DNA from: Candidatus Gribaldobacteria bacterium
GTDB lineage: Bacteria; Patescibacteriota; Minisyncoccia; Minisyncoccales; CG1-02-41-26
Length of the DNA stretch: 39,407 bases
Reading direction: 5' to 3'
Assembly: GCA_026396705.1 (NCBI GenBank)
Contig: JAPLWE010000058.1
Coordinates: 1-39,407 of the forward strand
The position numbers and the translations under genes are program-made. The notes beneath the pieces are model-generated. The model saw only the letters and a program-made list of their open reading frames with translations. It did no database searches and was not told the origin of the DNA. Below, piece after piece: positions 12,794 to 39,407 of the stretch. Within the stretch, counting starts at the first letter, position 1. The number at the start of each line of letters is the position of its first letter.

Positions 12794-14134
12794 ATGAAAG
12801 GAAATATTTTCACGGCAGTATTGGGTATGAGCAGTGGTTTGACAGTCCAGCGATGGAACGAAAAAGAAGTAGAAACAGTTTGCCAGATGACCATTCCTTG
12901 GATAGGAAATGACAAAGATATCTTTTGGCCGGAGCAGTGGTTGAGATCTGTGGTGGAGTTAGTGAACTCTTACGCAGAACAGGGCGATACAATTGCCTGG
13001 GCAATGCCCGGAGCGGATCTTGCTTTTGTAGAGAGATATCGAGTAAGTATGTCAGAGCGGGCTTATCGGCTTATTCTGCCGATTCTTAGTTATCAATCTC
13101 TGGCAGACGGAGTCATTTTTGAAGAGATTAACAAGATGGTTAATCCTAAAAAAGCCTATAGGCAAATGGCTGGGGCTAATTGGGCATTTTTTCAACCGCC
13201 TTCTCATATCTTTTATTACCTAAAGGAGCTTCAATCAGGGGATTTCAAAGTTATTAGTCTGGCAGATTGGATCAGTTATCTTGCCAAGGGGGCTAAAACC
13301 GAAATACCTGTTCACGATTCAACTATGTTGCAAAGTATGGGGGCATATGATTTTGACGGTAGTACTAGCGGGCTATATACTGAACTATTCGGCGAGGACA
13401 CAGCAGAAAAAATTTTCCCATTTGATGTTTTAGGGGAAAATGCTTATTCTACAATTGACGATATTAAGATTATTCCCTGCAGCCACGATTCGGTTTTTGC
13501 CCGCAGAATTGGCTTTAGTGTTTGTCCATCAGGTATTTGGACTGGCACTTGGGTGGGTACCAGCGATTGGATCGGCGAAAAAAATATCAAACCATCAAAC
13601 AAAACATTTGATGCGGGCATTGCTTTTGAGGGCTTAGGTAATTTAAGAGCTTTAATCACTAACATCTCTATGGCTGGGGCTATTTACAAAGCCATTGTCC
13701 AAAAGCTCGGCTGGAGCTATGAGCAAGCGTCTAAAAAGGCGGCAGAAGCGGTGTCCCATCTTGGAAGCCAGGTAGTATTTGATCTTGATGAATTGCCAAC
13801 AGACACTGAAGCGGTGGAGAAGCTTGTTGCAGGAAAAGCTCTTAATGCTGGCGATTACACTTTAGCTTATCTCCTTCAAAGTTTAGCGGCAGCTTGTCGC
13901 AGAAAAAAGGAAGCTGTTTATAAAATCCTGCGGCGAAAAGTACCAGAGGAAGTAGCGGTTTTTGGCGGTTTTGCTGAAAACCAGGCTTTTCTACAAGCCC
14001 TAAAAAACTTCGGTTTTGAGCCGATCGTTCCAAAATTCGCTAGCAATGCCACTCACGCTGGGCTAGCCATGGATGCTCTTATCAGAACTGGTCAAGCCGC
14101 TAACGACCAAGAAGCGCTAAGTATGTTGCGATGA
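12794..14134 (+). CDS. Divergent FGGY-family carbohydrate kinase-like protein (rhamnulokinase-like)
   Basis: AGGAG SD 8 nt upstream. CSHDSVFA (compare SHDTASA), GTWVG, VFGGFAENQAFLQAL and NATHAGLAMDAL parallel RhaB-type kinases. The N-terminal AVLGMSSG lacks the usual Asp. Confidence 0.55.
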   Translation: MKGNIFTAVLGMSSGLTVQRWNEKEVETVCQMTIPWIGNDKDIFWPEQWLRSVVELVNSYAEQGDTIAWAMPGADLAFVERYRVSMSERAYRLILPILSYQSLADGVIFEEINKMVNPKKAYRQMAGANWAFFQPPSHIFYYLKELQSGDFKVISLADWISYLAKGAKTEIPVHDSTMLQSMGAYDFDGSTSGLYTELFGEDTAEKIFPFDVLGENAYSTIDDIKIIPCSHDSVFARRIGFSVCPSGIWTGTWVGTSDWIGEKNIKPSNKTFDAGIAFEGLGNLRALITNISMAGAIYKAIVQKLGWSYEQASKKAAEAVSHLGSQVVFDLDELPTDTEAVEKLVAGKALNAGDYTLAYLLQSLAAACRRKKEAVYKILRRKVPEEVAVFGGFAENQAFLQALKNFGFEPIVPKFASNATHAGLAMDALIRTGQAANDQEALSMLR

Positions 14135-15994: not shown

Positions 15995-17805
15995 TTATCT
16001 TTTATGGCTAATTGATGGGCCTTAAAATAATTAGCGACTAATTTTTTCCAGCCGAAAAAAGCGGAAAGATCTTTAGCATGAATTTTATTTTCTACTCTTT
16101 CTTTGCGCTGATATTGGCTGAAAGAAAATAAACTATTGGTCAATGAATCAACGACTTCTTCATCTTTTTTACCTGTTCTTTTTAAGATAAAAACGCCCGG
16201 ATACTTTTTGCTTTTAATATGTTCTTGGCAAGCTCTGCCAAACCCAGTCAGGTCGCTGGTGATTGAAGGCACGCCAAAACCAGCCGTTTCTAGGGGAGTA
16301 TAGCCCCAGGGTTCATAAAACGATGGGAAAACGCCTAAATGCGCGCCTTTTAGAAATTCTTCATAAGTTAAGTTGGTTAAGCCGTCATGGCCAGAAAGGT
16401 AAATGGGATAAAAAACTGCTTTAACTTTATCATCAGGCTTATTATCTAGACCAGCATCTTGCAGGGCAGTTAAAATAGCATCTTGTTGGCTAACCAGATC
16501 ATGAGTGGATAATGGCGGGGTGCCCTTTCTTTTTAATTTTAAGAATTTTTTTTCAATATCAAACAAAAAGTCCTTATTGAAAAGCGTTTCTTCAGAGATT
16601 TCTTTATCTTCAGCCAAAGCGTAAAGCACCTTTTCTTGGGTTTCATCGGATATTTCTTCTAAAGAGTTTTTGATGTCATCTAAAAATTCACGACTTTCTA
16701 AAATATCAGTTTTTACTCCTCGCACATCCGAGGGCACTAAAAAGAAAACAACTATTGTTTTTTTGGCGTTGCTTTCTTGCATTTTTTTATTAAGTTGAGC
16801 CAAAGATTTAATAAAGATATCCAGCCCTTTAGCGCGAAATTCGTAGCGACAAGCGGTAAAGAAAAATAAAGTTTGCTCTAAATCAAAAGAATAATAAGGA
16901 AAAAAATAAAAAAGCAGAAAATTTCTTAAGCGGTTGCGGTGCGCTCGATGTTGAATGGTTAATTCTTCAAAGCTGGGATACTGGCTTTCGCTAAGGCCGT
17001 TGGGCAAAAAGATAGTGGCATTTCTACCTAAAAATCTCTCGGCCTCCCAAGCAGTGATAGCGCTCACCGTGGTGAATACAGTGGCTTGGGTGGCAGTGGC
17101 TTTTTCTAATTGATGCTTGGCTTTGATGTTAAATTTAATGATATTTTCTTCTATGTTGATCTTGTCAATAAAATTATAAAAATCAACATTATTGTAGGCT
17201 AAAGTGCGCCCTAAAGTAGTAGCATGAGTGGTAAAGACAGTGCCTATTTGCGGCGCAATTTTTGCTAAGTGCAAAAGGCCCGCTCCCGAGAGCCACTCGT
17301 GAAAGTGAGCCACTATTTTTTGACCAGGAAAAAGACTGGCCATTTTTTCAATTAATAAACCGCAAGCTGTCGCCCAAATAACTGGCTCGGTAAAATCATT
17401 AACAGATAATAAAGAATCAATTTGCCAATTATTCCAAAGCTCGGTTTTTATTTGGTTGGCTTTGGACCAAAAATCCTTAAAATCAATTAAAATTATTTTA
17501 GGCTCGCCCGCAATTAGCCATTTGCCAAAATGGCATTTTAAGCCATGCTCTATTTCTAAGCTATGAAAAATTTCTTTAAGACCATCAGTTGGTGGTTCTT
17601 CTTCAAATTCACCTTTGGTTTTTTCTAAAAAATAAGGGCCAAGCAAAAAATAGTTTTCAGGGTATTGTTCAAGCATTTGCTCGGCTTTGGATGTTAAAAC
17701 AGTCCAGATACCTCCTACTTTATTGCACACCTCCCAAGATACTTCAAAAACCGCTGCTGGTTTTTCCATAGGCACGGCTTTAGAAAATATTTTTTTAGCG
17801 TTCAT
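15991..17805 (-). CDS. GT3-family (eukaryote-like) glycogen synthase
   Basis: N-terminus FEVSWEVCNKVGGIWTVLTSKA closely parallels the animal/fungal glycogen synthase signature (FEVAWEVANKVGGIYTV). About 600 aa. Confidence 0.75.
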   Translation of the reverse strand: MNAKKIFSKAVPMEKPAAVFEVSWEVCNKVGGIWTVLTSKAEQMLEQYPENYFLLGPYFLEKTKGEFEEEPPTDGLKEIFHSLEIEHGLKCHFGKWLIAGEPKIILIDFKDFWSKANQIKTELWNNWQIDSLLSVNDFTEPVIWATACGLLIEKMASLFPGQKIVAHFHEWLSGAGLLHLAKIAPQIGTVFTTHATTLGRTLAYNNVDFYNFIDKINIEENIIKFNIKAKHQLEKATATQATVFTTVSAITAWEAERFLGRNATIFLPNGLSESQYPSFEELTIQHRAHRNRLRNFLLFYFFPYYSFDLEQTLFFFTACRYEFRAKGLDIFIKSLAQLNKKMQESNAKKTIVVFFLVPSDVRGVKTDILESREFLDDIKNSLEEISDETQEKVLYALAEDKEISEETLFNKDFLFDIEKKFLKLKRKGTPPLSTHDLVSQQDAILTALQDAGLDNKPDDKVKAVFYPIYLSGHDGLTNLTYEEFLKGAHLGVFPSFYEPWGYTPLETAGFGVPSITSDLTGFGRACQEHIKSKKYPGVFILKRTGKKDEEVVDSLTNSLFSFSQYQRKERVENKIHAKDLSAFFGWKKLVANYFKAHQLAIKDK

Positions 17806-17807
17806 AT

Positions 17808-18080
17808 TTATAATTGGGCTCTGATTTTTTGAGCCATTAGTTTGGCAGTTTTGATTTTTTCAATTTGCTTGGCTAAAGTTTTTTTATCAAAAACTCCTTC
17901 AATCCAGCGGGCAAAATCGTTTTTGCTGGCGTTAACATGGTGGCTAAAAATATTTTGGTCTATTTTCTCCAAAATACTTGCGCACTCTTTTAAGTTTTTA
18001 GCAACTTGACCATCGCAAAACCAAAAAGCTTTTTCTGGCGACACATTTTTTACAGGAGTCGATTTTTTAATGGGTTTCAT
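17808..18080 (-). CDS. Hypothetical 90-aa protein in the glucan operon
   Basis: Intact ORF 2 nt upstream of the GT3 gene. No family recognised with confidence. Confidence 0.5.
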   Translation of the reverse strand: MKPIKKSTPVKNVSPEKAFWFCDGQVAKNLKECASILEKIDQNIFSHHVNASKNDFARWIEGVFDKKTLAKQIEKIKTAKLMAQKIRAQL

Positions 18081-18094
18081 ATTTTTAATTTTAG

Positions 18095-18260
18095 GACTTG
18101 CGTATTTGGGGCGAAGAAATTAATTTTGCGGAGTTTCCACAGGCAAAATGCTTGGTTTGGCCAGCAGGCCAAATTTTGCCGAGGACTAAGCGAGCCGCCG
18201 CAGGAGCGGCGAGCGGCTCCGCAAAATTCAATTTCTTCGCCCCAAACATTAGCGTAAGTT
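18095..18260. repeat. GC-rich branched-palindrome element, copy C (diverged, inverted relative to A/B)
   Basis: Its reverse complement aligns end to end with copies A and B. Termini GACTTGCG.../...CGTAAGTT. All stems are retained by compensatory changes, and GCTTAGT and ACCAAGC are conserved. Confidence 0.85.
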
Positions 18261-18285
18261 GTGCGAACTTCATAAATAGCGACCT

Positions 18286-19464
18286 TTATTTCAGTTGCAG
18301 CTTTAAGTCGTTAAAGATATTCATAAAAGTAATATAGCCATCATAGGGCGATTCGTAGGGGCTGAAGTATTTATGCACATCGCCGTCAGCAAACCATTTC
18401 ACGCACATATAATAAAAATGGTCCGAGGTTTGTAGTTTTCGCCAAGTGTCCAGCAGTTTTTTGTTTTTTGTTTTTTTAATTTCATTTTCTAAGGAGTAAA
18501 TATTTTCTAGGGCGGTTTTTTGCATTTTATTGCCCAGCCACGCGGAAAGGTCTCTTTCGGTGTCAGCCCAGGTAACAATATTAGGAAAATCAAGCTCGCC
18601 TTTGGGCTTATATAATTTTATCACTTCTGAAGGATTTTGGAAATTATTTTCTGGGTATTTCAAGATTTCAGTGGGCAGGTTTTTTAAGAATTCAAAAATG
18701 CCCGTTTCTTCCCATTGGTGTTCACCGAATGTTTCATAGTCCATAAACAGATTTACTACCTCCCCATCGCCTTCGCTACCCCTGACCCAAGCGGCGAATT
18801 TTTCAGCGGTGAGAGGCCAATCTGCCCAATCACGGCAGGAAAAACGAAAAGAGATGTTGTCGCTTAGTTTATAATTGCGTAATAATAATTTGGTTGCGCC
18901 ACCGTTTTTAGCTTGATAAACGAAATTAGGGCTGCGCCAGCCCAAGATATAATCAGCCCCCTCGCCTAAAATAGCCTTATAGCCCATTTCTTCAATTTGC
19001 TTGGCCATTTGATTGTTAAGCATCAGCTCGGTGTTGCGAAAAACTTTTGGTTGAAGATTAAAGAGTTTTTTAATTTTACGGTTGTGCAAGGCCACTTGAG
19101 TTTTGAATTCTTGGGCTGAATAGAGATAAGCTAATGAATGATGATATGTTTCAGCTAAAATTTCCACACAACCAGTGGCTGTTAATTTTTGGAAATCTTC
19201 AATGACTTCGGGGAAAGACTCTTCTAATTGTTCTAGCAAAACACCGGATAAACCAAAGGCCACTTTGAATTTTCCTCGGTGTTGATGGATGAGTTGTAAA
19301 AGTAGTTTGTTGGTGGGTAAATAACTTTTGCGGGCAATGCGCTCTAAATAATTTTTATTGGCAGAGGTGTCAAAATATTCTTGGTTTTGGCCAATGTCAA
19401 AGACCGAAAAGTTTTTCAAACGAAACGGTTGATGGGTTTGTAGATATAAGCAAACTGATGGCAT
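18286..19464 (-). CDS. GH57-family alpha-glucan-active enzyme (alpha-amylase/branching-enzyme-like)
   Basis: LYLQTHQPFRL at the N-terminus, NTELML and MDYETFGEHQW. Start moved to MPSVCLYLQ (ATG 19464), because the ORF-track extension translates a repeat fragment. Confidence 0.7.
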   Translation of the reverse strand: MPSVCLYLQTHQPFRLKNFSVFDIGQNQEYFDTSANKNYLERIARKSYLPTNKLLLQLIHQHRGKFKVAFGLSGVLLEQLEESFPEVIEDFQKLTATGCVEILAETYHHSLAYLYSAQEFKTQVALHNRKIKKLFNLQPKVFRNTELMLNNQMAKQIEEMGYKAILGEGADYILGWRSPNFVYQAKNGGATKLLLRNYKLSDNISFRFSCRDWADWPLTAEKFAAWVRGSEGDGEVVNLFMDYETFGEHQWEETGIFEFLKNLPTEILKYPENNFQNPSEVIKLYKPKGELDFPNIVTWADTERDLSAWLGNKMQKTALENIYSLENEIKKTKNKKLLDTWRKLQTSDHFYYMCVKWFADGDVHKYFSPYESPYDGYITFMNIFNDLKLQLK

Positions 19465-19471
19465 AAATGTA

Positions 19472-19508
19472 GGTCTTGCGCTAATCTCGGGGTTCGCCCT
19501 CGCGCGCA
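19472..19508. repeat. Possible solo terminal fragment (F) of the palindrome family
   Basis: GGTCTTGCGCTAATCTCGGGGTTCGCC resembles the copy C termini (GACTTGCGTATTTGGGGCGAAG and AACTTACGCTAATGTTTGGGGCGAAG). GC-rich island in the 51-nt gap between genes. Confidence 0.35.
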
Positions 19509-19515
19509 AAACATA

Positions 19516-20706
19516 TTAATGTAAAATTTCGTTGTAAATATTTAGACAGGTAGTGGCGGAGTTATCCCAGGTGATGTTTTGCACTTCGGTTTCGCCGTTT
19601 TGGGACATTGTCTGGCTTAAAATCGGATATTGTAAAACCGCTAAAATTTTAGCGGCCATTTCGTTTATATCCCAGAAGTCAACCTTGAGGCAGTTTTTGA
19701 TCACTTCAGATACGCCTGATTGTTTGGAAATAATGGCTGGCGTGCCATGCCCTAAAGCTTCTAAGGCAGTTATGCCGAATGGCTCTGACACCGAAGGCAT
19801 TACATATAAATCAGCCAGTTGATAAATTTTAGACAAGTTTTCATTACGCAAAAAACCAGTAAAAATAACTTTATCGGCAATGCCAAGATCAATGGCTGAA
19901 TTTATCAATTGAGTTTCCATGTCGCCCGAACCGGCCATCACAAAATATACATTGGGATTTTTTTGTAAAACTTTTTTGGCAGCTAGTAAAAAATAATCAG
20001 GGCCTTTTTGCAGGGTAAGCCGTCCTAAAAACAAAACAATTTTGAACTTTTTTTTGAGCTCGCCCAAATTCAGTGAATTATAAAAGTTGTGGGCTGTTTC
20101 TTGAAAATCTAAACCATTATAAACCACAGTTATTTTTTCTGGGTTGATGCTATAATTATCAACTATTTTTTGTTTAGTAAAATTACTTACTGCCGCTATT
20201 TTATCAGCCTTTATAAAGCCCTCTTTTTCAATGGCATAAACTTGTTCATTGACGCTATGTCCACCGGTGCGGTCAAATTCAGTAGCGTGAATGTGCGCCA
20301 CTAAAGGTTTGCCTGAAATTTCTTTAGCCATAATACCCGCCCGATAACATAGCCAATCATGAGCGTGAATAATATCAAACGATTCTCGTTTAGCTATTTC
20401 ACGCGCCAATAAGGCGTATCTTTGGACTTCGTCTACTAGTCCCCGGCCATCAAATAGCCCTTGAGCTATTTTGCCATAAAGATCAGGGCTAAGATAAGCA
20501 GCTTTTAAGATTTTTTCAGCATCAATCTGGTTTTTATCGGCAAAAATTAAACGACAAAAATCAACCTGACAATCAATTTTTTTAGGCAAAACAAAAAGCA
20601 CTTCAACGCCTTGTTTGGCCAAGGCCTTGCTTAAACCATAACAAGCCACCCCCAATCCTCCAGCATTAAAGGGTGGAAATTCCCAGCCAAACATTAAAAC
20701 TTTCAT
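19516..20706 (-). CDS. GT4/GT5-type glycosyltransferase (archaeal glycogen-synthase-like)
   Basis: MKVLMFGWEFPPFNAGGLGVA N-terminus as in archaeal/bacterial glucan synthases. HAHDW. EX7E region SEPFGITALEALGHG. Confidence 0.7.
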   Translation of the reverse strand: MKVLMFGWEFPPFNAGGLGVACYGLSKALAKQGVEVLFVLPKKIDCQVDFCRLIFADKNQIDAEKILKAAYLSPDLYGKIAQGLFDGRGLVDEVQRYALLAREIAKRESFDIIHAHDWLCYRAGIMAKEISGKPLVAHIHATEFDRTGGHSVNEQVYAIEKEGFIKADKIAAVSNFTKQKIVDNYSINPEKITVVYNGLDFQETAHNFYNSLNLGELKKKFKIVLFLGRLTLQKGPDYFLLAAKKVLQKNPNVYFVMAGSGDMETQLINSAIDLGIADKVIFTGFLRNENLSKIYQLADLYVMPSVSEPFGITALEALGHGTPAIISKQSGVSEVIKNCLKVDFWDINEMAAKILAVLQYPILSQTMSQNGETEVQNITWDNSATTCLNIYNEILH

Positions 20707-20785
20707 CTTTTCTATTCCGCTTACATTTATTCTGTTATTATACTGCTTTTTTTCTCTGTCAACAAAGGTGGATAACCTGCCTTTT

Positions 20786-20822
20786 CTTTGAAATTAGTTT
20801 CCTCGCCACCAAGGCGCAAGTC
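20786..20822. repeat. Solo 3'-arm fragment (D) of the palindrome family
   Basis: CTTTGAAATTAGTTTCCTCGCC is 22/22 identical to the 3' arm of A/B and ends in the family terminus GCGCAAGTC. No matching 5' arm upstream. Confidence 0.7.
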
Positions 20823-21549
20823 ATGCATTAAGTAATAACGCGGCGCCGATGGCGGAGGCATTTTGGCCTAACTTGGCTAAAGCAATTTTGGGCATTTGCG
20901 TTTTGGGCCAAAGCAAGTTTTTTGCAAGGAACTCGGTTCCTTGCAAAGAGAGGGACCGCGCGCCTGCCCCGCCCAAAATAATTATTTCTGGATTAAAAAT
21001 GTTAATTAAATTAGCCAAACCAATAGCGTTTATTTTTTCTTGTTCTTTGGGTTTATTTTTGGTTGCTTGATAAAGCTTTTCCCAGCTTTGTCCTTTATTA
21101 ATAATTATGTGGCCAACTTCACCAGAAGGGGCGGGTAAAATTTTATCGTTTATCATTAGCGCTCCCCCAATACCAGTGCCTAAAGTCACCGCTAAGATAT
21201 TGCTGTATCCTCTGCCCGCTCCAAGCATTGCTTCGGCTCGCAAGAAGCAATGAACATCATTATCTATTCTAACAATTTTATCAGGCCAAAGTTTTTTTAG
21301 ATTGAGCCCGTCTAATTGAGGCGCATTGGGGCACTTAATAATCTGACCATTGATTGCGTTAAAAATCCCCGGCACGCCAATCCCGATTTTTAGCAAGCCA
21401 TACTCCCCCACTATTGCTTTGAGATTTTCTTTATTGGGAGCGCCAGTAATTTGTTTTTGTTCAACAATTTTTTGCCCATTCCAAACAACCAAATTAATTT
21501 TCGACCCGCCAATATCCACCCCCAAAATATTTTCTTTTTTGATAGTCAT
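20821..21549 (-). CDS. ROK/ASKHA-family glucokinase-like sugar kinase
   Basis: ILGVDIGGSKINLV, GIGVPG and LGTGIGGAL. Start moved to MTIKKEN (ATG 21549). The ROK Cys-rich zinc motif is not evident. Confidence 0.65.
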   Translation of the reverse strand: MTIKKENILGVDIGGSKINLVVWNGQKIVEQKQITGAPNKENLKAIVGEYGLLKIGIGVPGIFNAINGQIIKCPNAPQLDGLNLKKLWPDKIVRIDNDVHCFLRAEAMLGAGRGYSNILAVTLGTGIGGALMINDKILPAPSGEVGHIIINKGQSWEKLYQATKNKPKEQEKINAIGLANLINIFNPEIIILGGAGARSLSLQGTEFLAKNLLWPKTQMPKIALAKLGQNASAIGAALLLNA

Positions 21550-21587
21550 TATTACTATTTGATTATTATTTAATAATAGCATAAAAC

Positions 21588-25378: not shown

Positions 25379-25843
25379 TTAGCCTATTTCAAACATTTTT
25401 TCGCAAAAAGGACATCTAATGACCGAGCAGTCTTCGGGTTCGCCCAAAATAACTAGCTCTAAGTTTTTTATTGAATTGTCGTCTTTAAGCTTATTTTTAT
25501 GGCGCACTGCTTCATTAGGTTTTAATTCTCTGCCCAGGAATTGTTCCATTATCCAGCGGTGTTCGGGTAGATAGCCTCTTTTGTTGGCGTTGGGGTGGTC
25601 AGGGGCGTAAACCATGATATAGCCACTTTGGCTATCTTTGTATTTACCTCCTTTCCAATAGGGATTATTGGGGCCACTGCGGTCAGCTTCATAAGGCCTC
25701 ACTTCCCTAATTTCAAAGCGGGCTGCCCAACGAGAAATTGTGGTAATATTCACTCCGCACGAGATGGCTATCTCTGAAATAGTTAGCTCTTCGGTAAGGT
25801 ATTTTTTGCAAAGCCAATTCTTATTTTGATAATTTTTTTCCAT
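25379..25843 (-). CDS. HTH + HNH endonuclease-domain protein
   Basis: N-terminal HTH (LTISEIAISCGVNITTISRWA). HNH region GYLPEHRWIMEQ...VRHKNKLKDDNSIKNLEL. C-terminal CPFC knuckle. First gene behind the CIRCE promoter. Confidence 0.7.
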   Translation of the reverse strand: MEKNYQNKNWLCKKYLTEELTISEIAISCGVNITTISRWAARFEIREVRPYEADRSGPNNPYWKGGKYKDSQSGYIMVYAPDHPNANKRGYLPEHRWIMEQFLGRELKPNEAVRHKNKLKDDNSIKNLELVILGEPEDCSVIRCPFCEKMFEIG

Positions 25844-32088: not shown

Positions 32089-32346
32089 TTAGTTATATAT
32101 ATTATGAAGGCCAACTTCTAAAAATAAAACTTCGGATTGATTGATAAAAATAAATTTAATTCTGTAAGAATAATTAATCCAGAACGCCCAGCATCCACTG
32201 TCTTTTCCTGATAATTTATGAGTTTTCAATGATGGGTCAAATGGATAAACGCGAAAAATCCCTTCTTTTTCTTTGGCCTGTTCTTTGATTTTTTTAGGCA
32301 ATCGTTTATATTGTTTTTCAAACTTTGGCGATACCCTAATAATCAT
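32089..32346 (-). CDS. RelE/ParE-superfamily type II toxin
   Basis: 85 aa. The pattern KTHKLSGKDSGCWAFWINYSYRIKFIF...LFLEVGLHNIY matches RelE/YafQ-like toxins. Starts 2 nt after the antitoxin ORF. Confidence 0.7.
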   Translation of the reverse strand: MIIRVSPKFEKQYKRLPKKIKEQAKEKEGIFRVYPFDPSLKTHKLSGKDSGCWAFWINYSYRIKFIFINQSEVLFLEVGLHNIYN

Positions 32347-32348
32347 AT

Positions 32349-32594
32349 TTAATCTAAATCAGCCAATGACTTTATTGTTTTACATTTACCAGCTTTATAC
32401 TCGGCCACCCCATCTCTAATTAACCAATCCAATTCCTGCGCTTCCTTGCCCTCTAAATGATGTATGGGCACTGCGTTTTCACACAATCTTTTATATTCCC
32501 GCAAAGACAAAATAACCATTCCTTTTTGCCTTAAAATGGTTGCTTTTGACAGGGTTATATTGTCTTTTATCTGGTGTTTTGCCATATGTTTCAT
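32349..32594 (-). CDS. Cognate antitoxin (Phd/RelB-like)
   Basis: 81-aa ORF immediately upstream of the toxin, in the typical two-gene arrangement. Confidence 0.55.
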   Translation of the reverse strand: MKHMAKHQIKDNITLSKATILRQKGMVILSLREYKRLCENAVPIHHLEGKEAQELDWLIRDGVAEYKAGKCKTIKSLADLD

Positions 32595-32694: not shown

Positions 32695-34179
32695 CTAATT
32701 AAATTTTTCGGGTGTATTAGGTTTCATCAACGGGAAAATTTGGCACTCTCTAGCGGGTTTATTCATTAAAAAGCTAAAGAGGCGCTCGGACAGGCCAAAA
32801 CCGCAGGTGGGGGGCATGCCATATTCTAAGGCTTCCACAAAATCATGGTCGTTCATTTGGGCTTCCTCGTCGCCGGCTTCTCTTAGCTTTTGTTGTTCAG
32901 TAAAGCGTTCGGCTTGGTCAATGGGGTCGTTGAGCTCGCTATAGCCATTGCCCATTTCACTGCCCGCCAAAATAACTTGGAATTTTTGGGTTATGCTGGG
33001 ATCTTTTTCGTTTCTTTTGGCTAAGGGCGAAAGTTCCACGGGTTGGTTGATCAAAAAACCGGGGCCTGATATTTTTTTGCGGCAATACTTCCACAAATTA
33101 TCAATAGCTCTGTTTTTATTAAAGCCTTTTTTGTCGTATTCAATACCTAACTTTTGTAAGGCTTTTTCAATTTCGCTCAAGCTATCCTCGGCAATATCAA
33201 CGCCGGTATATTTTTGCACAGTTGATTGGTAATCGTATTTTTCCCATTTTTTGGCAAAATCAATGCTATGCTCGCCTATCTGAAATTTCAGAGTGCCAAA
33301 AGTTTTTTTGGCCACGAATTTATACATTTCTTCCACTAATTCCATACCTTGGTTATAGTCAGCGTAGGCCCAGTAAAATTCCATTTGGGTATAGTCCTGC
33401 AAGTGTTCAGCATCCATACCTTCATTGCGAAACTGTCGGCCAATTTCAAAAGTTTTTTCAAAACCAGCCACCATTAGTTTTTTTTGCCACAACTCGCCCA
33501 TAGAAATTCGCAAGAAAATATCAATATCTAGAGCATTATGATGAGTGACAAAAGGCCGAGCATCCGCGCCTCCAGTGGTAACTTCCAATACTGGGGTTTC
33601 TACTTCTAAAAATCCCCTGTCAATTAAAAATTCGCGCATAGTATTCCAAAAAACTGCTCGTTTTTCTATCATTTGCTTAACTTCTGGGTTAAATAAAATA
33701 TCTAAATATCTTTTGCGCAACTTTTCTTCGGTGTCTTGCAAACCATGCCATTTTTCAGGTAAGGGCAAAAGCGCCTTAGCAATAATCTTAAAATCAACAG
33801 CTTCTATGGTTTTTTCTTTGGTTTTACTTTCAATCAAAGCGCCTTTAATCTCTACAAAATCGCCAATATCCATTGTTTCAGTGAAAAACTTAAAACCGCT
33901 CTCCCCTATTTTGTCTTGTCTTAAAATAACTTGGATATTCCCGCTTGGCGAGCCGTCTTGGATATTTAGAAACAGCAAAGCCCCATGGCCTCTTTGGGCC
34001 ATTATGCGGCCAGCCAAAATAATTTCTTTGGCTGATTTTTTGAGCTTGGCAAAATCAGTTAAGGCTTGAGCAATGGCGTGTGTTCTTTGGCTAACAGCCG
34101 GATAAGGATTAAGCCCAGCCATTTCAATTTTGCGCAATTTTTCTAAACGAACTTTACGGATTTCATCAATAGTGCTCAT
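32695..34179 (-). CDS. lysS: Lysyl-tRNA synthetase (class II)
   Basis: OB-fold N-domain, FRNEGMDAEHLQDYTQMEFYWAYADY (motif 2 region) and C-terminal GMPPTCGFGLSERL. Confidence 0.9.
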   Translation of the reverse strand: MSTIDEIRKVRLEKLRKIEMAGLNPYPAVSQRTHAIAQALTDFAKLKKSAKEIILAGRIMAQRGHGALLFLNIQDGSPSGNIQVILRQDKIGESGFKFFTETMDIGDFVEIKGALIESKTKEKTIEAVDFKIIAKALLPLPEKWHGLQDTEEKLRKRYLDILFNPEVKQMIEKRAVFWNTMREFLIDRGFLEVETPVLEVTTGGADARPFVTHHNALDIDIFLRISMGELWQKKLMVAGFEKTFEIGRQFRNEGMDAEHLQDYTQMEFYWAYADYNQGMELVEEMYKFVAKKTFGTLKFQIGEHSIDFAKKWEKYDYQSTVQKYTGVDIAEDSLSEIEKALQKLGIEYDKKGFNKNRAIDNLWKYCRKKISGPGFLINQPVELSPLAKRNEKDPSITQKFQVILAGSEMGNGYSELNDPIDQAERFTEQQKLREAGDEEAQMNDHDFVEALEYGMPPTCGFGLSERLFSFLMNKPARECQIFPLMKPNTPEKFN

Positions 34180-34265
34180 AAATTTATAAATTATTTATTT
34201 ACTTTATCATAAAAATGAGTTATCAACAATTGCAATTATGTTAAAAAGCTTTATAACTAATACGA

Positions 34266-34320
34266 GGCAGACCTCTTCTATACTGAAAAAACATTTATAA
34301 AAAGATGGTAGAGGTCTGCC
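34266..34320 (+). promoter_or_regulatory. 11-bp perfect hairpin in the 5' region of the ATP-grasp cluster
   Basis: GGCAGACCTCT, 33-nt A/T-rich loop, AGAGGTCTGCC, ending 9 nt before ATG 34330. The 3' strand contains the only SD-like GAGG. Confidence 0.35.
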
Positions 34321-34329
34321 CCTCAATAT

Positions 34330-36762
34330 ATGAAAGGCAATGGTCACGATTTTAGTGGCAAAACAATTTTAATGGTTAATACTACTTCTTGGGGTTTTTC
34401 AGATAAGTTTATTTTTAAAACTTTGAAGAAAATGGGCTTGAGCATTGTTTGCTTAAATAAAGAAAAAAATTGGGCCGAGCCTTATGTTGATGAATGGATT
34501 ATTGCTGACAACACTAACCATGTGGAAGCTATTCAGGCGGTTAAAGATTTTATCTCGCAAAACCCTAGGAAGATTGACGGTGTTTTAACTTTTTTAGAAG
34601 ATGAAGTTTTACTTACTTCTAAAATCGTGGAAAAGTTTAATTTTCTTGGCACTCCTCATAGCGTCGCCAAGAAAGTGCGTAATAAGTATTTGTTTCGTCA
34701 GTTTTGCCGCGACAATAATTTGCCTGCTCCCCGCCATACTATTTTGTTGAAATCAGTCAAAAGTATTGGCGATCTACCAGAGGATTTTACTTTTCCAGCG
34801 GTCATTAAGCCAATTTTCGGTTGCGGCAGCGCTTATGTTATCAAAGTTAACAACAAAGAAGAGCTAGCCAACACCTTTAATTACATTAAAAAAAATATTG
34901 CCGCCGCTACGGCCGCTGAAGGATCTTTTTTTGACGGCTTAGATATTTTAGTAGAGGGGTATATTGATGGAGACGAAGTTGATGTTGATATTGTTTTGCA
35001 AAATGGCAAAATAAAATTTTATTCTATTTCTGATAATTACCAAACTAGGGAGCCATTTTTTGTGGAAACTGGCCAGGCCATTCCTACTAGTTTGTCGGTT
35101 AAAAATCAAGCTGATTTAATTGGCCTAGCTGAAGAAGTTTTAGAAAAGTTAGGCATACAAAATAGCATTGTTCATTTCGAGGCTAAGTCAACGCCAAACG
35201 GCCCAGTGCCCATTGAGTTAGGTTTGCGTATGGGCGGAGACGAAGTCCATTCGTTTGTTAAGGGGGCTTGGGGCGTAGATTTGGTAGAAAATGCCGCTAA
35301 AATTGCTTTGGGAGCCTATATACCAAAAATTCAAAAACCTGACGCGCCTAAAAAATATATTACTGGTGTTTATTTCTTGTCTAATTATTCTGGCGTTCTA
35401 ACTAAAATCAATGTTAATGAAGAAATCAGAACTAAAAAATATTTAGAAGAGTTGCATTTTTTCAAAAAAGTTGGCGAGCCAGTGCTGGCGCCGCCCGAGG
35501 GCTATGAATTTATGGGCTGGACAACTGTTTCGGGCTATAGTTTGCCTGACGCGCAAGAAAATCTTAAAGAGGCTTTGAAATTCATTGATTATGAAGTAGC
35601 TAAATTTACGCCTGATTCGTCAATTGGTCGCACTAGCCGTGAAAATAGTTTTTCACACGCTTCGTTAAATACCAAGTTGCTCATTCAGGCCGCTAAAATA
35701 GAAAAGATTAAGTTGGTGGCCGGAGATGACCAACGCGATTTACGAATAGGCATAGCCAGCAATCTTGAGGAAGATGAATCTGAAGGAAACGGCGAGTCAG
35801 TTATTCAGCCATCTTTGGCTAAAATAATTGAAAAGACTCTTAAGGAGCGCGGTTATCGCACTACTTTATTCGATTTTAATAACATAGAAAAAGTAATGAA
35901 AGAACTGAAAACAAAAGCAAAAAATGTTGACTTAATTTTTAACGCTTGTGAAAAAATTAATAATTCTATTCAATTAAAATCTCACGCTGCCGCTCTTTTG
36001 GATATTTTGCAGTTGCCCTATACCGGATCAAGCCCGTTTGCTTTGTCGCTGTGTCGCGATAAAATTCAATCTAAAAAATTATTGGCTTACCATGGCATTC
36101 CCACACCTAAATGGGATTATGTTTATACGGTAGATGAAGAAGTAGATGAAACCTTAAAATATCCTTTGATTGTTAAGCCCTCAAATATGGATGATTCTTT
36201 TGGCATTACCAATGAATCCGTGGTTACCAATAAAGAAGATTTACAGCGAGAAATTCGCAAGGTGGTTGAAGATTTACATTGTCCAGCTTTAATTGAAGAA
36301 TATATTGAGGGGGACGAGTATGATGTGCCTATTTTGGGTAATGATGAAGCCGACTTGCAGGTTTTGCCATTGTCTCGCGCTATTTTTAAGGATATGCCAT
36401 TGGGCAAATGGCATATTATTACCAATGAAATGAAGATATCTGCTCAATCGCTGGCTGAATGGGGTATAATTTTGCAGCGGCCTCCTAAAAATATTGATAA
36501 AAAATTAGAAACTTTAATCACGGAGATTGCTTTGGACACTTACAATATCTTGGAATGTCGCGATTATGGTCGAGTAGAAATAAGAGTGGGGCAAGACGGC
36601 AATCCTTATGTTTTAGAATTAAATGCCAATCCCCCATTGGTGCCTTCCTCGTCTATTTCTGACGTGGCTCAATTGGCTGGCTTAAGCTATGAAGAACTTT
36701 TAGAAAAAATAATCACTTTAGCAGTAAAGCGTTATCAACAAAATTCTTCACAATTAACTTAA
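34330..36762 (+). CDS. Fusion of two ATP-grasp ligase modules (L-amino-acid-ligase/carnosine-synthase-like N-terminal half, D-Ala-D-Ala-ligase-like C-terminal half)
   Basis: N-terminal half: FPAVIKP, EGYIDGDEVDVDIVL, SDNYQTREPFFVETGQAIP and ELGLRMGG. Acidic linker NLEEDESEGNGES. C-terminal half: YPLIVKPSNMDDSFGI, EEYIEGDEYDVPILG and VLELNANP. Confidence 0.7.
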   Translation: MKGNGHDFSGKTILMVNTTSWGFSDKFIFKTLKKMGLSIVCLNKEKNWAEPYVDEWIIADNTNHVEAIQAVKDFISQNPRKIDGVLTFLEDEVLLTSKIVEKFNFLGTPHSVAKKVRNKYLFRQFCRDNNLPAPRHTILLKSVKSIGDLPEDFTFPAVIKPIFGCGSAYVIKVNNKEELANTFNYIKKNIAAATAAEGSFFDGLDILVEGYIDGDEVDVDIVLQNGKIKFYSISDNYQTREPFFVETGQAIPTSLSVKNQADLIGLAEEVLEKLGIQNSIVHFEAKSTPNGPVPIELGLRMGGDEVHSFVKGAWGVDLVENAAKIALGAYIPKIQKPDAPKKYITGVYFLSNYSGVLTKINVNEEIRTKKYLEELHFFKKVGEPVLAPPEGYEFMGWTTVSGYSLPDAQENLKEALKFIDYEVAKFTPDSSIGRTSRENSFSHASLNTKLLIQAAKIEKIKLVAGDDQRDLRIGIASNLEEDESEGNGESVIQPSLAKIIEKTLKERGYRTTLFDFNNIEKVMKELKTKAKNVDLIFNACEKINNSIQLKSHAAALLDILQLPYTGSSPFALSLCRDKIQSKKLLAYHGIPTPKWDYVYTVDEEVDETLKYPLIVKPSNMDDSFGITNESVVTNKEDLQREIRKVVEDLHCPALIEEYIEGDEYDVPILGNDEADLQVLPLSRAIFKDMPLGKWHIITNEMKISAQSLAEWGIILQRPPKNIDKKLETLITEIALDTYNILECRDYGRVEIRVGQDGNPYVLELNANPPLVPSSSISDVAQLAGLSYEELLEKIITLAVKRYQQNSSQLT

Positions 36763-37703
36763 TGACATCATCTTATATAGAAACAGATATAAAAAAATGC
36801 GAATTGTTATGGGAAGAATTTAGCCCCAAACAATCGCTTTTTGATTTATGGAATTTTCGTTGGGCTTTTTATGTGGCTTATCAATATCAGCCGTATTTTA
36901 TTGTTTTGCAAGAAAATAGCCAAAATAGCGGGCTTTTGCCATTGTGGTATGAAAAAGAAAAAAACAAATATTTTTGGTTTGGCAGCTGGTGGCAAGAAGA
37001 TAATTATTTTTGGTTAAAAAATCCAGCCGACCTTCCGCATTTGCTTGCTTTGTGCCCTTTGCCCGCTTGCCTCAATGGCATTATTTTTGAAAAAATCGCT
37101 GATATTATCCCTGAACAAGAAAAAGATAATTTTCAGCCCGATGATCCAAAGTATATTTTAGAGTTAGACCAAGTTAGATCGTTTGAATATTATTTGGCTG
37201 GCCTGAAAAAAGAACGCCGAAAGGCCATTAAAAAAGATTTATTTTTAATAGAAAAACAAAATCCTGAAATTATTCTGGATAATTTTAATGATTTTGATGC
37301 TTTAGTGGCCTTAAGCAAGCAAAGATTTATTAACGAGAAAGAAGACAAAAATGATCCTTGGTATGACCCAGCCTTAAAAGATATCAGAAGAGTTGAGGCT
37401 TTGCGCAATATTATTAAATACCAAATGCCCCAACAGAACTATCAAGTTAAGATGATTACTGTCAAAATTAATCAAAAAATAGCTGGCGTTGATTTGGTGG
37501 CTATTTTTAATAATTGCTATTATGCCTTAGTGGGTGGTTATGACACAGAAAATTTTCCGGGTATTGGCAATTATTTAAATATGCTTAATATCAAGGGCGC
37601 CTTGGATCTTGGCTTAAAAAAAGTTGACGCCTTACAGAGTGATTGCGGTTGGAAACATCGTTGGTATCAAGAGAAACCGCTTTATTACTTTTCTAAGGAA
37701 TAG
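36762..37703 (+). CDS. CelD/BioF2-like (FemAB-like fold) GNAT-type transferase, putative
   Basis: 313 aa. The start overlaps the previous stop by 1 nt. The W-rich N-terminal half and C-terminal GVDLVAIFNNCYYALVGGYD...GNYLN resemble Acetyltransf_6/FemAB-like proteins. Assigned from memory only. Confidence 0.45.
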   Translation: MTSSYIETDIKKCELLWEEFSPKQSLFDLWNFRWAFYVAYQYQPYFIVLQENSQNSGLLPLWYEKEKNKYFWFGSWWQEDNYFWLKNPADLPHLLALCPLPACLNGIIFEKIADIIPEQEKDNFQPDDPKYILELDQVRSFEYYLAGLKKERRKAIKKDLFLIEKQNPEIILDNFNDFDALVALSKQRFINEKEDKNDPWYDPALKDIRRVEALRNIIKYQMPQQNYQVKMITVKINQKIAGVDLVAIFNNCYYALVGGYDTENFPGIGNYLNMLNIKGALDLGLKKVDALQSDCGWKHRWYQEKPLYYFSKE

Positions 37704-37704
37704 T

Positions 37705-39051
37705 ATGGCTACTAATAAAAAGATAAAGTTGGGAGTATTTTTAGATGATCTGGAGTTTATTTTATTTTCTCTCAAAAAAAATTTATTGCCAATAGAAATT
37801 GTCTATTTTGTTAATAAAACATCAAATGTTTTATCAATTTTACCTAAAGACGCAAAAATAGCTTATTATTCCTTTGAAAAAGGCTATGCTTTACAGGAGG
37901 GCGAGGATTTTCTTAAGGCAGTTGTTGCGCGCTCAAATTTCACTAAAATTGCCAAGGAGAAAAAAGTTTCTTGTTTTTGGCTTTCTCTTTGCCAGGAAAA
38001 TGTTGATTTTGTGAGTTTGTGGGCTCATAAAAATAATTTTTCTTTGATCGGTAGGCCTGATTTAATCAAAAAATTAGAAAATAAAATATTTTTTGATAGA
38101 TTTTTAGCTAAGCACAACATTAAAAAACCAAACAGCCAAGAGATATTTTACGAACAAGGAAAAAATATTGAATTTAAGCATCCTTTTGTTTTACAAGATC
38201 CTGTTTCATCGGGAGGAGAAGGAACTTTTTTTATTAAAAATAAAAACAGCTTAAAGCAACTCAATAAGTCTATTCTAAGAGATAAAGCCAAACTGCTTTT
38301 AAGGGAATTGGTTTACGGGACGCCTTGCGGGATAACTTTATTTATTGATAAGGATCGCGCCATAACTTCTTCTGTTAGAAGGCAATGTTTTGAGAATGCG
38401 GATAATTTGGCTAGAAGGGTTTTTCTGGGGGTTCAATTTTTGCCATATTCTCATTTTAATAAAAAAGAAACAGAGGAAATAAATAAAACATTTTTTCAAA
38501 TTAGTTCTATTTTTAGAGAAAATAAATGGTTTGGGTTATTTAATTTTGATTTTATAATTTCAAAAAAAGGAGAGATTTATTTAATTGAGTGCAATCCAAG
38601 GATTTCCGCTGCATCTTCTTTATTATTCTATTATCCAGAGCTTAATAATGGCTTTAATATTGCTGAAGTTTTTTTAGAAAGTTTATTTAAAGAAAAAGTT
38701 CAAAAAGAATCATTTATTTTTTATGGCCTAGGCAAAAATCAATTTCAAGGCTCAATTTTCTATCTTGATATTGAAGTTTCTGCTGGTAAAAGCATTAAAA
38801 TAAAAAAAGTTTTTAAGGAAGGAGTTTATGAACAAACAGATAGTAATATTTTGTTTTTATCTTATAACTTAAATAAAATAAGCTCGCCTAACAAGCGGTT
38901 TATTCTAAAAAATGAGGTTTGTGTTGGCGAAGTTTACAAGAAAGCCTTTACTACTAGCACCATTCTGTCCAACTATCCCCTCTTTGATTCTAAAGGCGCT
39001 CTTTCGCAAGCCGGAGAAATTATAAAAAAGAAATTTAATTATGTTGATTAA
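37705..39051 (+). CDS. ATP-grasp-fold ligase (third module)
   Basis: Start MATNKKIKLG (ATG 37705) lies 1 nt after the previous stop. FVLQDPVSSGGEGTFFI and FNFDFIISKKGEIYLIECNPRIS are ATP-grasp hallmarks. Confidence 0.6.
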   Translation: MATNKKIKLGVFLDDLEFILFSLKKNLLPIEIVYFVNKTSNVLSILPKDAKIAYYSFEKGYALQEGEDFLKAVVARSNFTKIAKEKKVSCFWLSLCQENVDFVSLWAHKNNFSLIGRPDLIKKLENKIFFDRFLAKHNIKKPNSQEIFYEQGKNIEFKHPFVLQDPVSSGGEGTFFIKNKNSLKQLNKSILRDKAKLLLRELVYGTPCGITLFIDKDRAITSSVRRQCFENADNLARRVFLGVQFLPYSHFNKKETEEINKTFFQISSIFRENKWFGLFNFDFIISKKGEIYLIECNPRISAASSLLFYYPELNNGFNIAEVFLESLFKEKVQKESFIFYGLGKNQFQGSIFYLDIEVSAGKSIKIKKVFKEGVYEQTDSNILFLSYNLNKISSPNKRFILKNEVCVGEVYKKAFTTSTILSNYPLFDSKGALSQAGEIIKKKFNYVD

Positions 39052-39407
39052 AGAAACCATCACGAAAAAAAAGTTGATAATGGATATGGTCGGCAAACAT
39101 AGTTCTCCATTTTTTATTTTTGACAAGAAACAGCTTTTTTTGAGTTTTAATCAGTTTGCTGATGCTTTTTCTATTATTTTGCCCAAAGAAAATATTTTTT
39201 ACGCTGTTAAATCAAATACCTATCTTCCTTTGGTTAAAGAGATTGTTAAACTTGGGGGCAGTTTAGATGTTTCAAGCGCGAGCGAGTTTGAGATGGCCTT
39301 GAAATGCGGGTCTAAAAAAATTCTTTTTTCTGGGACGGGTAAAACTTTAAATGATTTGAGTTTGGCTGTTTCAAACAGAGAAAAAGTTATTGTAAACATA
39401 GACAGCT
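39041..39407 (+). CDS. Fold-type III PLP-dependent decarboxylase (Orn/DAP/Arg decarboxylase family), N-terminal 122 codons, runs off the window
   Basis: Hand translation MLIKETITKKKL...SPFFIFDKKQL...FYAVKSNTYLPLVKEIVKLGGSLDVSSASEFEMAL. YAVKSN carries the PLP lysine. Overlaps the previous gene by 11 nt. Not in the ORF track. Confidence 0.7.
   Translation, partial: MLIKETITKKKLIMDMVGKHSSPFFIFDKKQLFLSFNQFADAFSIILPKENIFYAVKSNTYLPLVKEIVKLGGSLDVSSASEFEMALKCGSKKILFSGTGKTLNDLSLAVSNREKVIVNIDS

Follow-up and report, generated by a model that had tools for sequence, protein, structure and literature searches.

A modular ATP-grasp gene cassette of Patescibacteria that may assemble a short, amine-ended peptide-like molecule

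A four-gene cassette at the end of a 39,407-nucleotide contig from a Candidatus Gribaldobacteria bacterium (JAPLWE010000058.1, GenBank assembly GCA_026396705.1) is proposed, with moderate confidence, to assemble a short peptide-like small molecule that has an amine end, and to do so without a ribosome, a nonribosomal peptide synthetase (NRPS), or a carrier protein. The window analyzed here is the entire contig, which derives from freshwater or lake metagenome sequence, and its end falls inside the last gene of the cassette; its closest named relatives are Paceibacterota and Gribaldobacteria metagenome-assembled genomes (MAGs). The first gene, g1, encodes two fused ligases and is conserved across Patescibacteria, or Candidate Phyla Radiation (CPR) bacteria, while g2 encodes a predicted transferase, g3 a further ligase, and g4 a pyridoxal phosphate (PLP)-dependent decarboxylase. 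A first-pass annotation of the sequence had put forward a pseudopeptide that contains a decarboxylated unit and is made without an NRPS, which is plausible but unproven. The genes and modules, with the neighboring lysS as given in the open reading frame (ORF) list, are as follows.

32695-34179, minus strand: lysS.
34330-36762, plus strand: g1, 810 aa, an L-amino-acid-ligase (LAL)-type ATP-grasp fused to a Ddl-like ATP-grasp.
34330-35604, plus strand: N-terminal module of g1, LAL-type, with a pre-ATP-grasp domain, an ATP-grasp domain, and LAL_C2.
35737-36762, plus strand: C-terminal module of g1, a D-Ala-D-Ala-ligase (Ddl)-like ATP-grasp distinct from true Ddl.
36762-37703, plus strand: g2, 313 aa, a predicted tandem-GNAT, Fem-type transferase.
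37705-39051, plus strand: g3, 448 aa from the ATG at 37705, a third ATP-grasp of a divergent family.
39041-39407 (window end), plus strand: g4, first 122 codons, a predicted fold-type III PLP decarboxylase of a LysA/FslC-like subfamily.

As the first-pass annotation had proposed, g1 to g4 make up a single operon: their junctions are tight, a scan for internal terminators found none that was convincing, and relatives repeat this gene order. Read from the DNA, g1 and g2 have the single base 36762 in common (TAATG), g2 and g3 are separated by a 1-nt gap (TAG-t-ATG) with a Shine-Dalgarno-like AAGGAA upstream, and g3 and g4 overlap by 11 nt, the ATG of g4 at 39041 lying inside g3. The mechanical ORF of g3 opens at a TTG at 37624; we took the first ATG, at 37705, as the start. 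A Logan contig (L001) that reaches ~480 nt beyond the window lengthens g4 to 283 aa, and a 917-nt contig in run X1 runs ~700 nt beyond the window end. In the closest relative with a full g3-g4 pair (L020/L021), the operon stops at g4 and is followed by a convergent gene for penicillin-binding protein 2 (PBP2).

Both halves of g1 have the signatures of working ligases. In the N-terminal half, Pfam detects ATP-grasp_4 (aa 154 to 304; 1.1e-30, 106.8 bits versus a cut-off of 27) and LAL_C2 (aa 348 to 423; 7.3e-8, 33 bits versus a cut-off of 29.4), and the nearest measured relative is the L-amino-acid ligase BL00235 (PDB 3VOT; 5.2e-24 over aa 27 to 409), with BacD found at 3e-6 in the PDB search. 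Domains above threshold and likeness to a characterized enzyme together place this half in the LAL family. Among 26 homologs, K160, E209, and the motif E296-x-N-L-R300-MGGD are invariant in the N-terminal half, N298 nearly so, and K616, E656/E657, R748, E763, and N765 are invariant or nearly so in the C-terminal half. Each half therefore has the ATP-binding lysine, hinge glutamate, and Mg-binding E-x-N plus arginine of an ATP-grasp enzyme. Like the LALs BL00235 of Bacillus licheniformis, BacD/YwfE, TabS, and RizA, the N-terminal half is a three-domain ATP-grasp with LAL_C2 and intact catalytic motifs; unlike them, it is permanently fused to a Ddl-like ligase, has low identity to 3VOT, and is conserved lineage-wide, outside antibiotic clusters.

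The C-terminal half resembles Ddl in fold and in its ATP chemistry and departs from it where D-alanine would bind. Dala_Dala_lig_C matched aa 600 to 796 (2.1e-32) and a solved Ddl structure matched g1 at 6e-24, whereas Pfam found no Dala_Dala_lig_N in g1, and the best NCBIfam Ddl subfamily model reached 170.3 bits against a cut-off of 243. Aligned with the Ddl of Yersinia pestis (E. coli-type numbering), the ATP, Mg, and transition-state residues of the Ddl/VanA family (K144, E180, R255, E270, and N272) are retained, but S150 is replaced by D and G276 by P, and the omega-loop residues K215/Y216 stand opposite Q/S in a poorly aligned loop. In two relatives, a canonical Ddl with both Pfam Ddl domains (252 and 185 bits) is encoded on the same contig as the g1 ortholog (L081, 11514-12494; L127, 13891-14850). 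The Ddl-like domains of g1 proteins are 51 to 66% identical among themselves and 22 to 25% identical to these canonical enzymes. Since a canonical Ddl co-occurs with g1 at such low identity, we conclude from the sequences that g1 is not the housekeeping Ddl: family score, paired N and C domains, D-Ala site residues, and, in these two relatives, the role of sole Ddl are all lacking for assignment to EC 6.3.2.4. Between L081 and L127, the Ddl-like half of g1 is 59% identical and the genuine Ddls are 34% identical, and g1 is the more conserved protein. An acidic run at aa ~479 to 490 (NLEEDESEGNGES), earlier read as a linker between the two halves, turns out to be a loop inside the Ddl-like domain, directly after the first strand of its N-domain, where the family consensus is variable.

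A precedent for such a fusion is the bifunctional glutathione synthetase GshF/GshAB, a pair of fused carboxylate-amine ligases that builds a tripeptide in two steps; its C-terminal ligase is a Ddl-like ATP-grasp, and its N-terminal module is a gamma-glutamylcysteine ligase and not a LAL. The two-ligase logic of g1 is the same, by analogy and not by whole-protein homology, and a PDB sequence search with g1 at E ≤ 0.001 found no GshF chain.

Of the Patescibacteria proteins sampled, few are as well conserved or as widespread as g1. Homology searching at E ≤ 1e-30 over the first 8,000 candidates found homologs in at least 643 clusters; the best 120 matches, from which identities were taken, come from Patescibacteria phyla, are 702 to 844 aa long (nearly all ~800 to 830 aa), and share 55 to 89% identity. 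They carry generic names only ("ATP-grasp domain-containing protein," "D-alanine-D-alanine ligase"). The first-pass annotation had considered the cassette unexpected in a metabolically minimal genome; with g1 in at least 643 clusters, it is instead typical of such small genomes. Comparisons with close relatives gave dN/dS values of ~0.05 for g1, 0.09 for g2 (versus L017), and 0.08 for lysS, which are rough because dS is near saturation; taken as such, they suggest that g1 and g2 are under purifying selection and that g1 is constrained about as tightly as lysyl-tRNA synthetase.

To place g1 to g4 in their genomic neighborhoods, we used two independent samples of loci. A scan with a g3 profile of one genome per GTDB species gave 27 loci, onto which the cassette proteins were then mapped, and a second sample comprised 80 g1 loci from JGI metagenomes (576 of 600 candidates confirmed among the matches listed). 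Genes in related loci are greedy ORF calls (code 11), and some Gracilibacteria genes may be mis-split. Co-conservation, on which the earlier proposal depended, was evident: g4 adjoins g3 in 19 of 22 assessable loci, non-CPR phyla included, and g1, g3, and g4 lie side by side on one strand in Komeilibacteria, Roizmanbacteria, Saccharibacteria, Gracilibacteria, Peregrinibacteria, Wirthbacteria, Paceibacterota, and unclassified Patescibacteria. The Saccharibacteria homologs (L027, L028) are from MAGs of uncultured bacteria. The g3-g4 pair occurs alone in Colwellbacteria, Bdellovibrionota, Myxococcota, and Pirellulales, and a gammaproteobacterial MAG has g2-g3-g4 followed by a lysine-2,3-aminomutase-like radical SAM enzyme. 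All the genes of the window set are found in a Gribaldobacteria genome in the order g1 (split)-SET-g2-g3-g4, its g3 only 45% identical. Among the 61 g1 loci with at least 1.5 kb of downstream sequence (metagenome contigs of uneven length), the gene after g1 was as follows.

g2: 17 loci (the commonest).
F3b, a ~460-aa PP-loop protein, MurL-like: 11 loci.
SET-domain gene: 4 loci.
Extra LAL-type ATP-grasp: 4 loci.
g3: 2 loci.
Other: 13 loci.
None or convergent: 10 loci.

Within 6 kb of g1 in the same loci were g2 (23 loci), F3/F3b (18), g4 (9), SET (7), g3 (6), a dipeptide epimerase (5), lysS (3), and PBP2 (2). g1 is thus the hub of a modular cassette. With lysS near g1 in 3 and PBP2 in 2 of 61 loci, both associations are lineage synteny; we therefore rejected a functional tie to lysS as a Lys-tRNA donor, together with any meaning of the divergence from that gene, and likewise a functional tie to PBP2-mreCD.

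Some operons of Peregrinibacteria and Gracilibacteria run g1, LAL, LAL, g3, g4, which makes five ligase modules, as expected for stepwise assembly of an oligomer (L041, 4726-12324; L042, 4839-13990; L099, 728-8326; L113, 3869-11471). In L042, g4 is duplicated. The accessory genes of relatives are also informative. F3/F3b, the second commonest neighbor of g1, is a family of ~450 to 480 aa with a PP-loop motif (SFGKDS) and a WCxxCxxC cluster and no Pfam match (L023, 6132-7568; L024, 5865-7247; L032, 4498-7258; ~20 further loci); it resembles the MurL peptide epimerase model weakly (32 bits versus a cut-off of 700), and a PDB sequence search with it found nothing. Several loci encode an enolase-superfamily homolog of L-Ala-D/L-Glu epimerase (1e-61, below cut-off), which in L128 follows g3-g4, and ABC exporters (ABC_membrane plus ABC_tran) lie near the cassette in ~6 loci. 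SET-domain genes stand between or beside g1 and g2 in close relatives. Together, the MurL-like, dipeptide-epimerase, and ABC-exporter genes hint that the product is a short peptide, that one or more of its residues are epimerized, and that it may be exported. MurL acts in the MurD2/MurL alternative route to D-Glu (PMC8788868). The cassette in relatives is comparable to that route, and to the enolase-type L-Ala-D/L-Glu epimerases, in carrying a weakly MurL-like PP-loop protein, a dipeptide-epimerase homolog, or both; it differs in that the window has neither gene and no MurD2-type Mur ligase is tied to the cassette.

Three further observations concern individual loci. A soluble protein of 620 aa that matches no family is encoded between g3 and g4 or nearby in L023 (11319-13181) and L064 (14333-16192), and also in L100 and L101. 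One Bdellovibrionota locus has a gene for a DUF1611 protein upstream. In L037 (Wirthbacteria contig CAISZI010000053.1, 3-12648), g1-g3-g4 follow trehalose-synthesis genes on the same strand, the upstream run comprising an OtsA/OtsB fusion, trehalose phosphatase, TreT, and an Fe-alcohol dehydrogenase; this context hints at a stress or compatible-solute link in the Wirthbacteria lineage.

The third ligase, g3, has a Pfam match to ATP-grasp_3 (2.6e-12) and a motif, E295-C-N297-x-R299, that is invariant in six homologs, and we regard it on these grounds as a bona fide ATP-grasp. The catalytic residues whose loss the first-pass annotation had named as damaging to its proposal are thus retained in both halves of g1 and in g3, and so are the PLP residues of g4. 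The g3 family, with 196 representative clusters at E ≤ 1e-30, is smaller than that of g1, and Foldseek matched g3 to generic folds only (biotin carboxylase, PurK, PurD, LAL, and PylC) at similar scores. Its GC content (0.294) and GC3 (0.238) compare with 0.393 ± 0.026 and 0.378 ± 0.032 in the other window genes, and its GC lies below that of every one of them. The closest relatives of the window, whose g1 is 77 to 89% identical, have g1-SET-g2 and no g3-g4 in recovered sequence. The odd composition and this absence suggest that g3-g4 is a mobile add-on module, gained and lost. Plasmid collections contained no g3 homolog, and phage records yielded Ddl-like fragments only. An apparent g3-g4 fusion protein (P0288) was given no weight as Rosetta-stone evidence, because its contig name suggests a 2× long-read assembly and its C terminus looks frameshifted.

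The window copy of g4 has a Pfam match to Orn_Arg_deC_N (1.3e-9) and the PLP lysine in YAVKSN but ends before the RPxxY and CESGD motifs, and its subfamily was therefore judged from the full-length ortholog in L020 (381 aa). In the PDB, that ortholog matched diaminopimelate (DAP) decarboxylase (2P3E, 2e-24), the N-citrylornithine decarboxylase FslC (7KH2, 5e-20), lysine/ornithine decarboxylase, and BtrK (2J66/7RU7, 1e-13). The best NCBIfam model was lysA (TIGR01048; 143.5 bits versus 297.9), followed by TIGR03099 (114 versus 478), and FslC scored 86 versus 500. Across 20 family members, the PLP lysine K57 (present in the window fragment), the GGG at G225-G227, the EPGR at E267-R270, C333, and D337 are invariant, as a fold-type III PLP decarboxylase should have them. 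The Arg of the DAP decarboxylase RPxxY motif and the Glu of CESGD, which bind the distal carboxylate of DAP, are absent from all 20, and the family has a signature of its own, GSLCTPxDxWG, along with GWExxE in most members (not in L020). With the catalytic set kept, the DAP-binding Arg and Glu missing, the TIGR01048 cut-off not reached, and distinct family motifs, g4 is most simply read as an active decarboxylase that acts on a substrate other than free DAP and is not a DAP decarboxylase.

For g2, Pfam matched Acetyltransf_6 (1.9e-6, 28.5 bits versus a cut-off of 22); of the Fem sequence families, FemAB (PF02388) gave no match and FemAB_like (PF04339) 13 bits versus 27. No NCBIfam model matched, and neither phmmer nor a profile search found a PDB sequence match. 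The AlphaFold model (pLDDT 91.7) is a tandem GNAT, for which Foldseek ranks first Sbb17/Sba18 (7e-12), peptide synthases that depend on aminoacyl-tRNA, and FemX (3e-11), then MprF-type synthase domains. These Fem-type matches span 7.4e-12 to 2.7e-10 with TM scores of 0.58 to 0.64, and tandem GNATs that use acetyl-CoA rank lower, at TM 0.42. We therefore predict that g2 is a Fem-type transferase dependent on aminoacyl-tRNA. It has the tandem-GNAT fold of FemX of Weissella viridescens, of Sbb17/Sba18 from streptothricin-type pathways, and of the MprF synthase domain (TM ~0.6), but at 9 to 14% identity and outside the sequence families just named. Profile comparison (hhalign) of g2 gave no signal with canonical CPR FemAB or with the unassigned genes found ahead of g3 in loci of Bdellovibrionota and Pirellulales. 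Overall, Pfam bore out every domain call of the earlier annotation, and the Fem-like identity it gave g2 is backed by the predicted structure.

From these parts, a stepwise assembly can be proposed. The LAL-type half of g1 would couple two free amino acids, and the Ddl-like half would add a third unit via acyl-phosphate chemistry, following the tripeptide logic of GshF. g2 would then transfer one aminoacyl residue from aminoacyl-tRNA onto the free amine of the intermediate. g3 would ligate a further amino acid, probably through a side-chain (iso-peptide) link that leaves the alpha-amino acid end free, and g4 would strip the alpha-carboxylate of the residue added by g3, as BtrK and FslC do. Alternatively, g4 might decarboxylate a free amino acid and so supply an amine for coupling by g3, as in E-64. 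By either route, the product would end in an amine. Which substrates the enzymes use, in which order they act, that the product is a small molecule, and where it goes are all inferred. Three observations point to a small molecule: the nearest solved relatives of g1 (the LAL BL00235 at 5e-24 and Ddl at 6e-24) use free amino acids, relatives add the dipeptide epimerase (1e-61) and ABC exporters, and the named relatives of g4, FslC (5e-20) and BtrK (1e-13), decarboxylate products of ligases.

Known pathways share parts of this logic. The g3-g4 pair is, like BtrJ/BtrK in butirosin and FslA/FslC in rhizoferrin biosynthesis, a conserved ligase together with a LysA-like decarboxylase, and g4 resembles FslC in lacking the DAP-specific RPxxY and CESGD residues. 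In the butirosin module, the ATP-grasp loads Glu onto the carrier protein BtrI before decarboxylation. The g1-g4 operon has neither a BtrI-type carrier protein nor a synthetase of NRPS-independent siderophore (NIS) type; there is no room for a carrier-protein gene in so gene-tight an operon, and none was present among annotated neighbors in related loci. The earlier comparison with BtrJ/BtrK consequently stands as a likeness of ligase-decarboxylase logic and fails as regards the carrier protein. Comparable in gene content is the exosortase-A (PEP-CTERM) trio, also uncharacterized, which likewise combines a FemAB-like GNAT, a LysA-like decarboxylase (TIGR03099), and a carboxylate-activating enzyme; however, g4 falls far short of TIGR03099, g2 matches no NCBIfam model, and the activating enzyme here is an ATP-grasp in place of an AMP-ligase with a carrier protein. 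In phevamine biosynthesis, two ATP-grasps (HsvB/HsvC) acylate a polyamine (PMC6187163), and E-64 is built by an ATP-grasp and an amide synthetase (Cp1B/Cp1D) with the PLP decarboxylase Cp1C (PMC12568646). Both follow the same NRPS-independent, stepwise amide logic, with an amine end from decarboxylation or from a polyamine. They come from other organisms and have no Fem-type transferase or fused double ligase, and the likeness drawn here is one of logic.

Several points weigh against a dedicated small-molecule pathway. The operon in the window, which the contig end cuts inside g4, contains no gene for a carrier protein, transporter, or precursor. Identity of 55 to 89% in g1 across phyla is easier to reconcile with a housekeeping or envelope role than with a secondary metabolite that has diversified. 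Foldseek gave g3 no specific structural neighbor, and g2 is widespread without an ATP-grasp neighbor, often beside a class I methyltransferase instead, so that its role may be separable. Metatranscriptome contigs from the same lake samples yielded spurious ~20-nt matches only and left the locus uncovered. Finally, most accessory families in relatives are homologs of peptidoglycan-peptide enzymes, which leaves a cell-wall function in contention. Under that alternative, which we regard as possible but rather unlikely, the cassette would make, modify, or salvage a stem-peptide-like unit, for example a ready-made peptide of the L-Ala-D-Glu type, a branch in a side chain or cross-bridge, or a stem peptide with an amine cap. 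The ATP-grasps would then act like enterococcal D-aspartate ligase, g2 would be a FemX-type bridge builder, and g4 would trim the free carboxylate of a D-centre. Besides the murein-peptide homology of the accessory families and the strong conservation of g1, the setting in the window suits this idea, as the operon of the window clade lies between lysS and a convergent PBP2-mreD-mreC block and the window also encodes MurC, MurD, a MurF-like ligase, MraY, a DD-carboxypeptidase, and FtsQ. Yet the PBP2 linkage is, at 2 of 61 loci, a matter of lineage, and with the MurC and MurD of the window above NCBIfam cut-offs and a canonical Ddl in relatives, the classical route has no visible gap. Moreover, LAL and Ddl relatives take free amino acids and not nucleotide- or lipid-linked precursors, and the likeness of F3 to MurL is weak. 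A still more speculative variant, which we hold to be unlikely, is that the g1 cassette is a Patescibacteria-wide, near-essential pathway to a conserved D-amino-acid-containing envelope peptide, either through a hitherto unrecognized branch by which cell-wall peptides are made or salvaged or as a small peptide that all these bacteria need for host-attached life; the lineage add-ons (Fem-type transferase, MurL-like enzyme, epimerase, decarboxylase, and SET) would tailor that peptide.

Modification of a protein or ribosomal peptide is improbable. Here, the ATP-grasps would, like RimK and TTL enzymes, attach amino acids to a carboxylate of a protein, g2 would aminoacylate an N terminus or lysine, and the SET enzymes of relatives would methylate lysine. 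The ATP-grasp and Fem/L-F-transferase-type folds both include protein-modifying members, the SET-domain genes beside g1 and g2 are in keeping with such a role, and graspetide ATP-grasp clusters exist in CPR bacteria (PMC8939145). Against it, no precursor-peptide ORF fits into the gene-tight operon, the closest relatives of g1 are ligases of free amino acids and not RimK or MdnC types, the dipeptide epimerase suggests small molecules, as does the PLP decarboxylase with its need for a free alpha-amino acid, and some loci have ABC exporters. A graspetide, as a peptide made by the ribosome and modified after translation (RiPP), was rejected as a specific candidate for want of any small or precursor ORF in the operon and for its ATP-grasps, which are of LAL, Ddl, and biotin-carboxylase-like types and not MdnC. 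The data already contradict the notion that there is no pathway at all and that housekeeping genes (a Ddl fusion, an acetyltransferase, and LysA) stand together by chance or synteny, which we consider very improbable. Some source databases do call g1 "D-alanine--D-alanine ligase," and the best NCBIfam model of g4 is lysA, but the C-terminal half of g1 is below the Ddl cut-offs and without the D-Ala site residues, L081 and L127 have a canonical Ddl on the g1 contig, g4 scores under half of the lysA cut-off without the DAP-binding Arg and Glu, and the adjacency recurs across phyla and outside CPR bacteria. Housekeeping Ddl plus LysA was accordingly rejected, as was an anti-phage defense system, PADLOC having returned no matches for g1, g2, g3, the g4 ortholog, or F3.

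ATP-grasp peptide assembly with tailoring enzymes is known; a cassette that joins a LAL/Ddl-like hub to a Fem-type transferase and a LysA-derived decarboxylase is new. NCBIfam models for the cassette proteins were all below their cut-offs, and full-text literature searches returned no paper describing the g1-g4 gene set; with the PADLOC result, this agrees with the first-pass annotation, which could match the genes to no characterized pathway. Patescibacteria comprise a large share of bacterial diversity, have a stripped-down metabolism, and are almost all uncultivated. Retention of the cassette across their phyla would suggest a molecule that these bacteria cannot do without, and its four to seven genes, of easily assayed enzyme classes, offer a tractable entry to CPR chemistry, be it of the envelope, host interaction, or a metabolite. 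A further use of the fused LAL/Ddl-like ligase could be as a biocatalyst that forms peptides in two steps. If the envelope-peptide variant were true, g1 would be a ligase new to science that defines the lineage and gives access to the envelope biology of CPR bacteria.

Upstream of g1, the intergenic region contains two features.

34213-34257, no strand: conserved intergenic block between lysS and g1, with a 10-bp palindrome (AATTGCAATT) at 34228-34237.
34264-34324, plus strand: long hairpin before the g1 start codon, ~60 nt, an 11-bp GC-rich stem with an extension.

Aligned sequences of the window, L013, L014, L017, and the distant Gribaldobacteria locus L018 hardly differ within the block. 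Its TTGCAA is a -35-like hexamer on both strands: the minus-strand candidate promoter (TTGCAA-18 nt-TATGAT) was picked up by the promoter scan, and the plus-strand candidate (TTGCAA-16 nt-TATAAC, 34230-34257) is our own reading, outside the scan rule because TATAAC is without the final T. The block suggests candidate divergent promoters for lysS and g1 or a shared operator. The predicted fold of 34180-34345 has an energy of -30.8 kcal/mol (z = -2.7). The hairpin is confined to the window lineage, being missing in L013, L014, L017, and L018, and its 3' arm overlaps the likely ribosome-binding region of g1; a small inserted palindrome or an element that controls translation could account for it. 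A riboswitch or leader RNA as a clue to the ligand was rejected, as Rfam returned noise only and the hairpin is not in relatives.

Elsewhere in the window, an 85-aa gene between serS and lysS with a weak RelE/StbE and YoeB toxin match (5.8e-4, below cut-off) and an 81-aa partner upstream (32089-32594, minus strand) are probably a type II toxin-antitoxin pair. A glycogen block (14231-21582, minus strand) encodes an amylo-alpha-1,6-glucosidase-like protein, a Glycogen_syn synthase (PF05693, 514 bits), GH57, a GT4/GT5 starch-synthase-like protein, and a ROK kinase; the PF05693 type of glycogen synthase is best known from eukaryotes. The UMP kinase at 7224-7913 (minus strand) scores 148 bits with the archaeal pyrH model (cut-off, 158) versus 54 with the bacterial model. 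A 446-aa ORF at 12794-14134 (plus strand) has no Pfam or NCBIfam match and a GC content of 0.438, among the highest in the window; only one other gene upstream of the cassette is on the plus strand, the rest of that region being minus-strand. A free-standing HNH endonuclease gene (25379-25843, minus strand) adjoins the grpE-dnaK-dnaJ operon, and LAGLIDADG endonuclease genes lie near mreC in the related loci L007 and L014.

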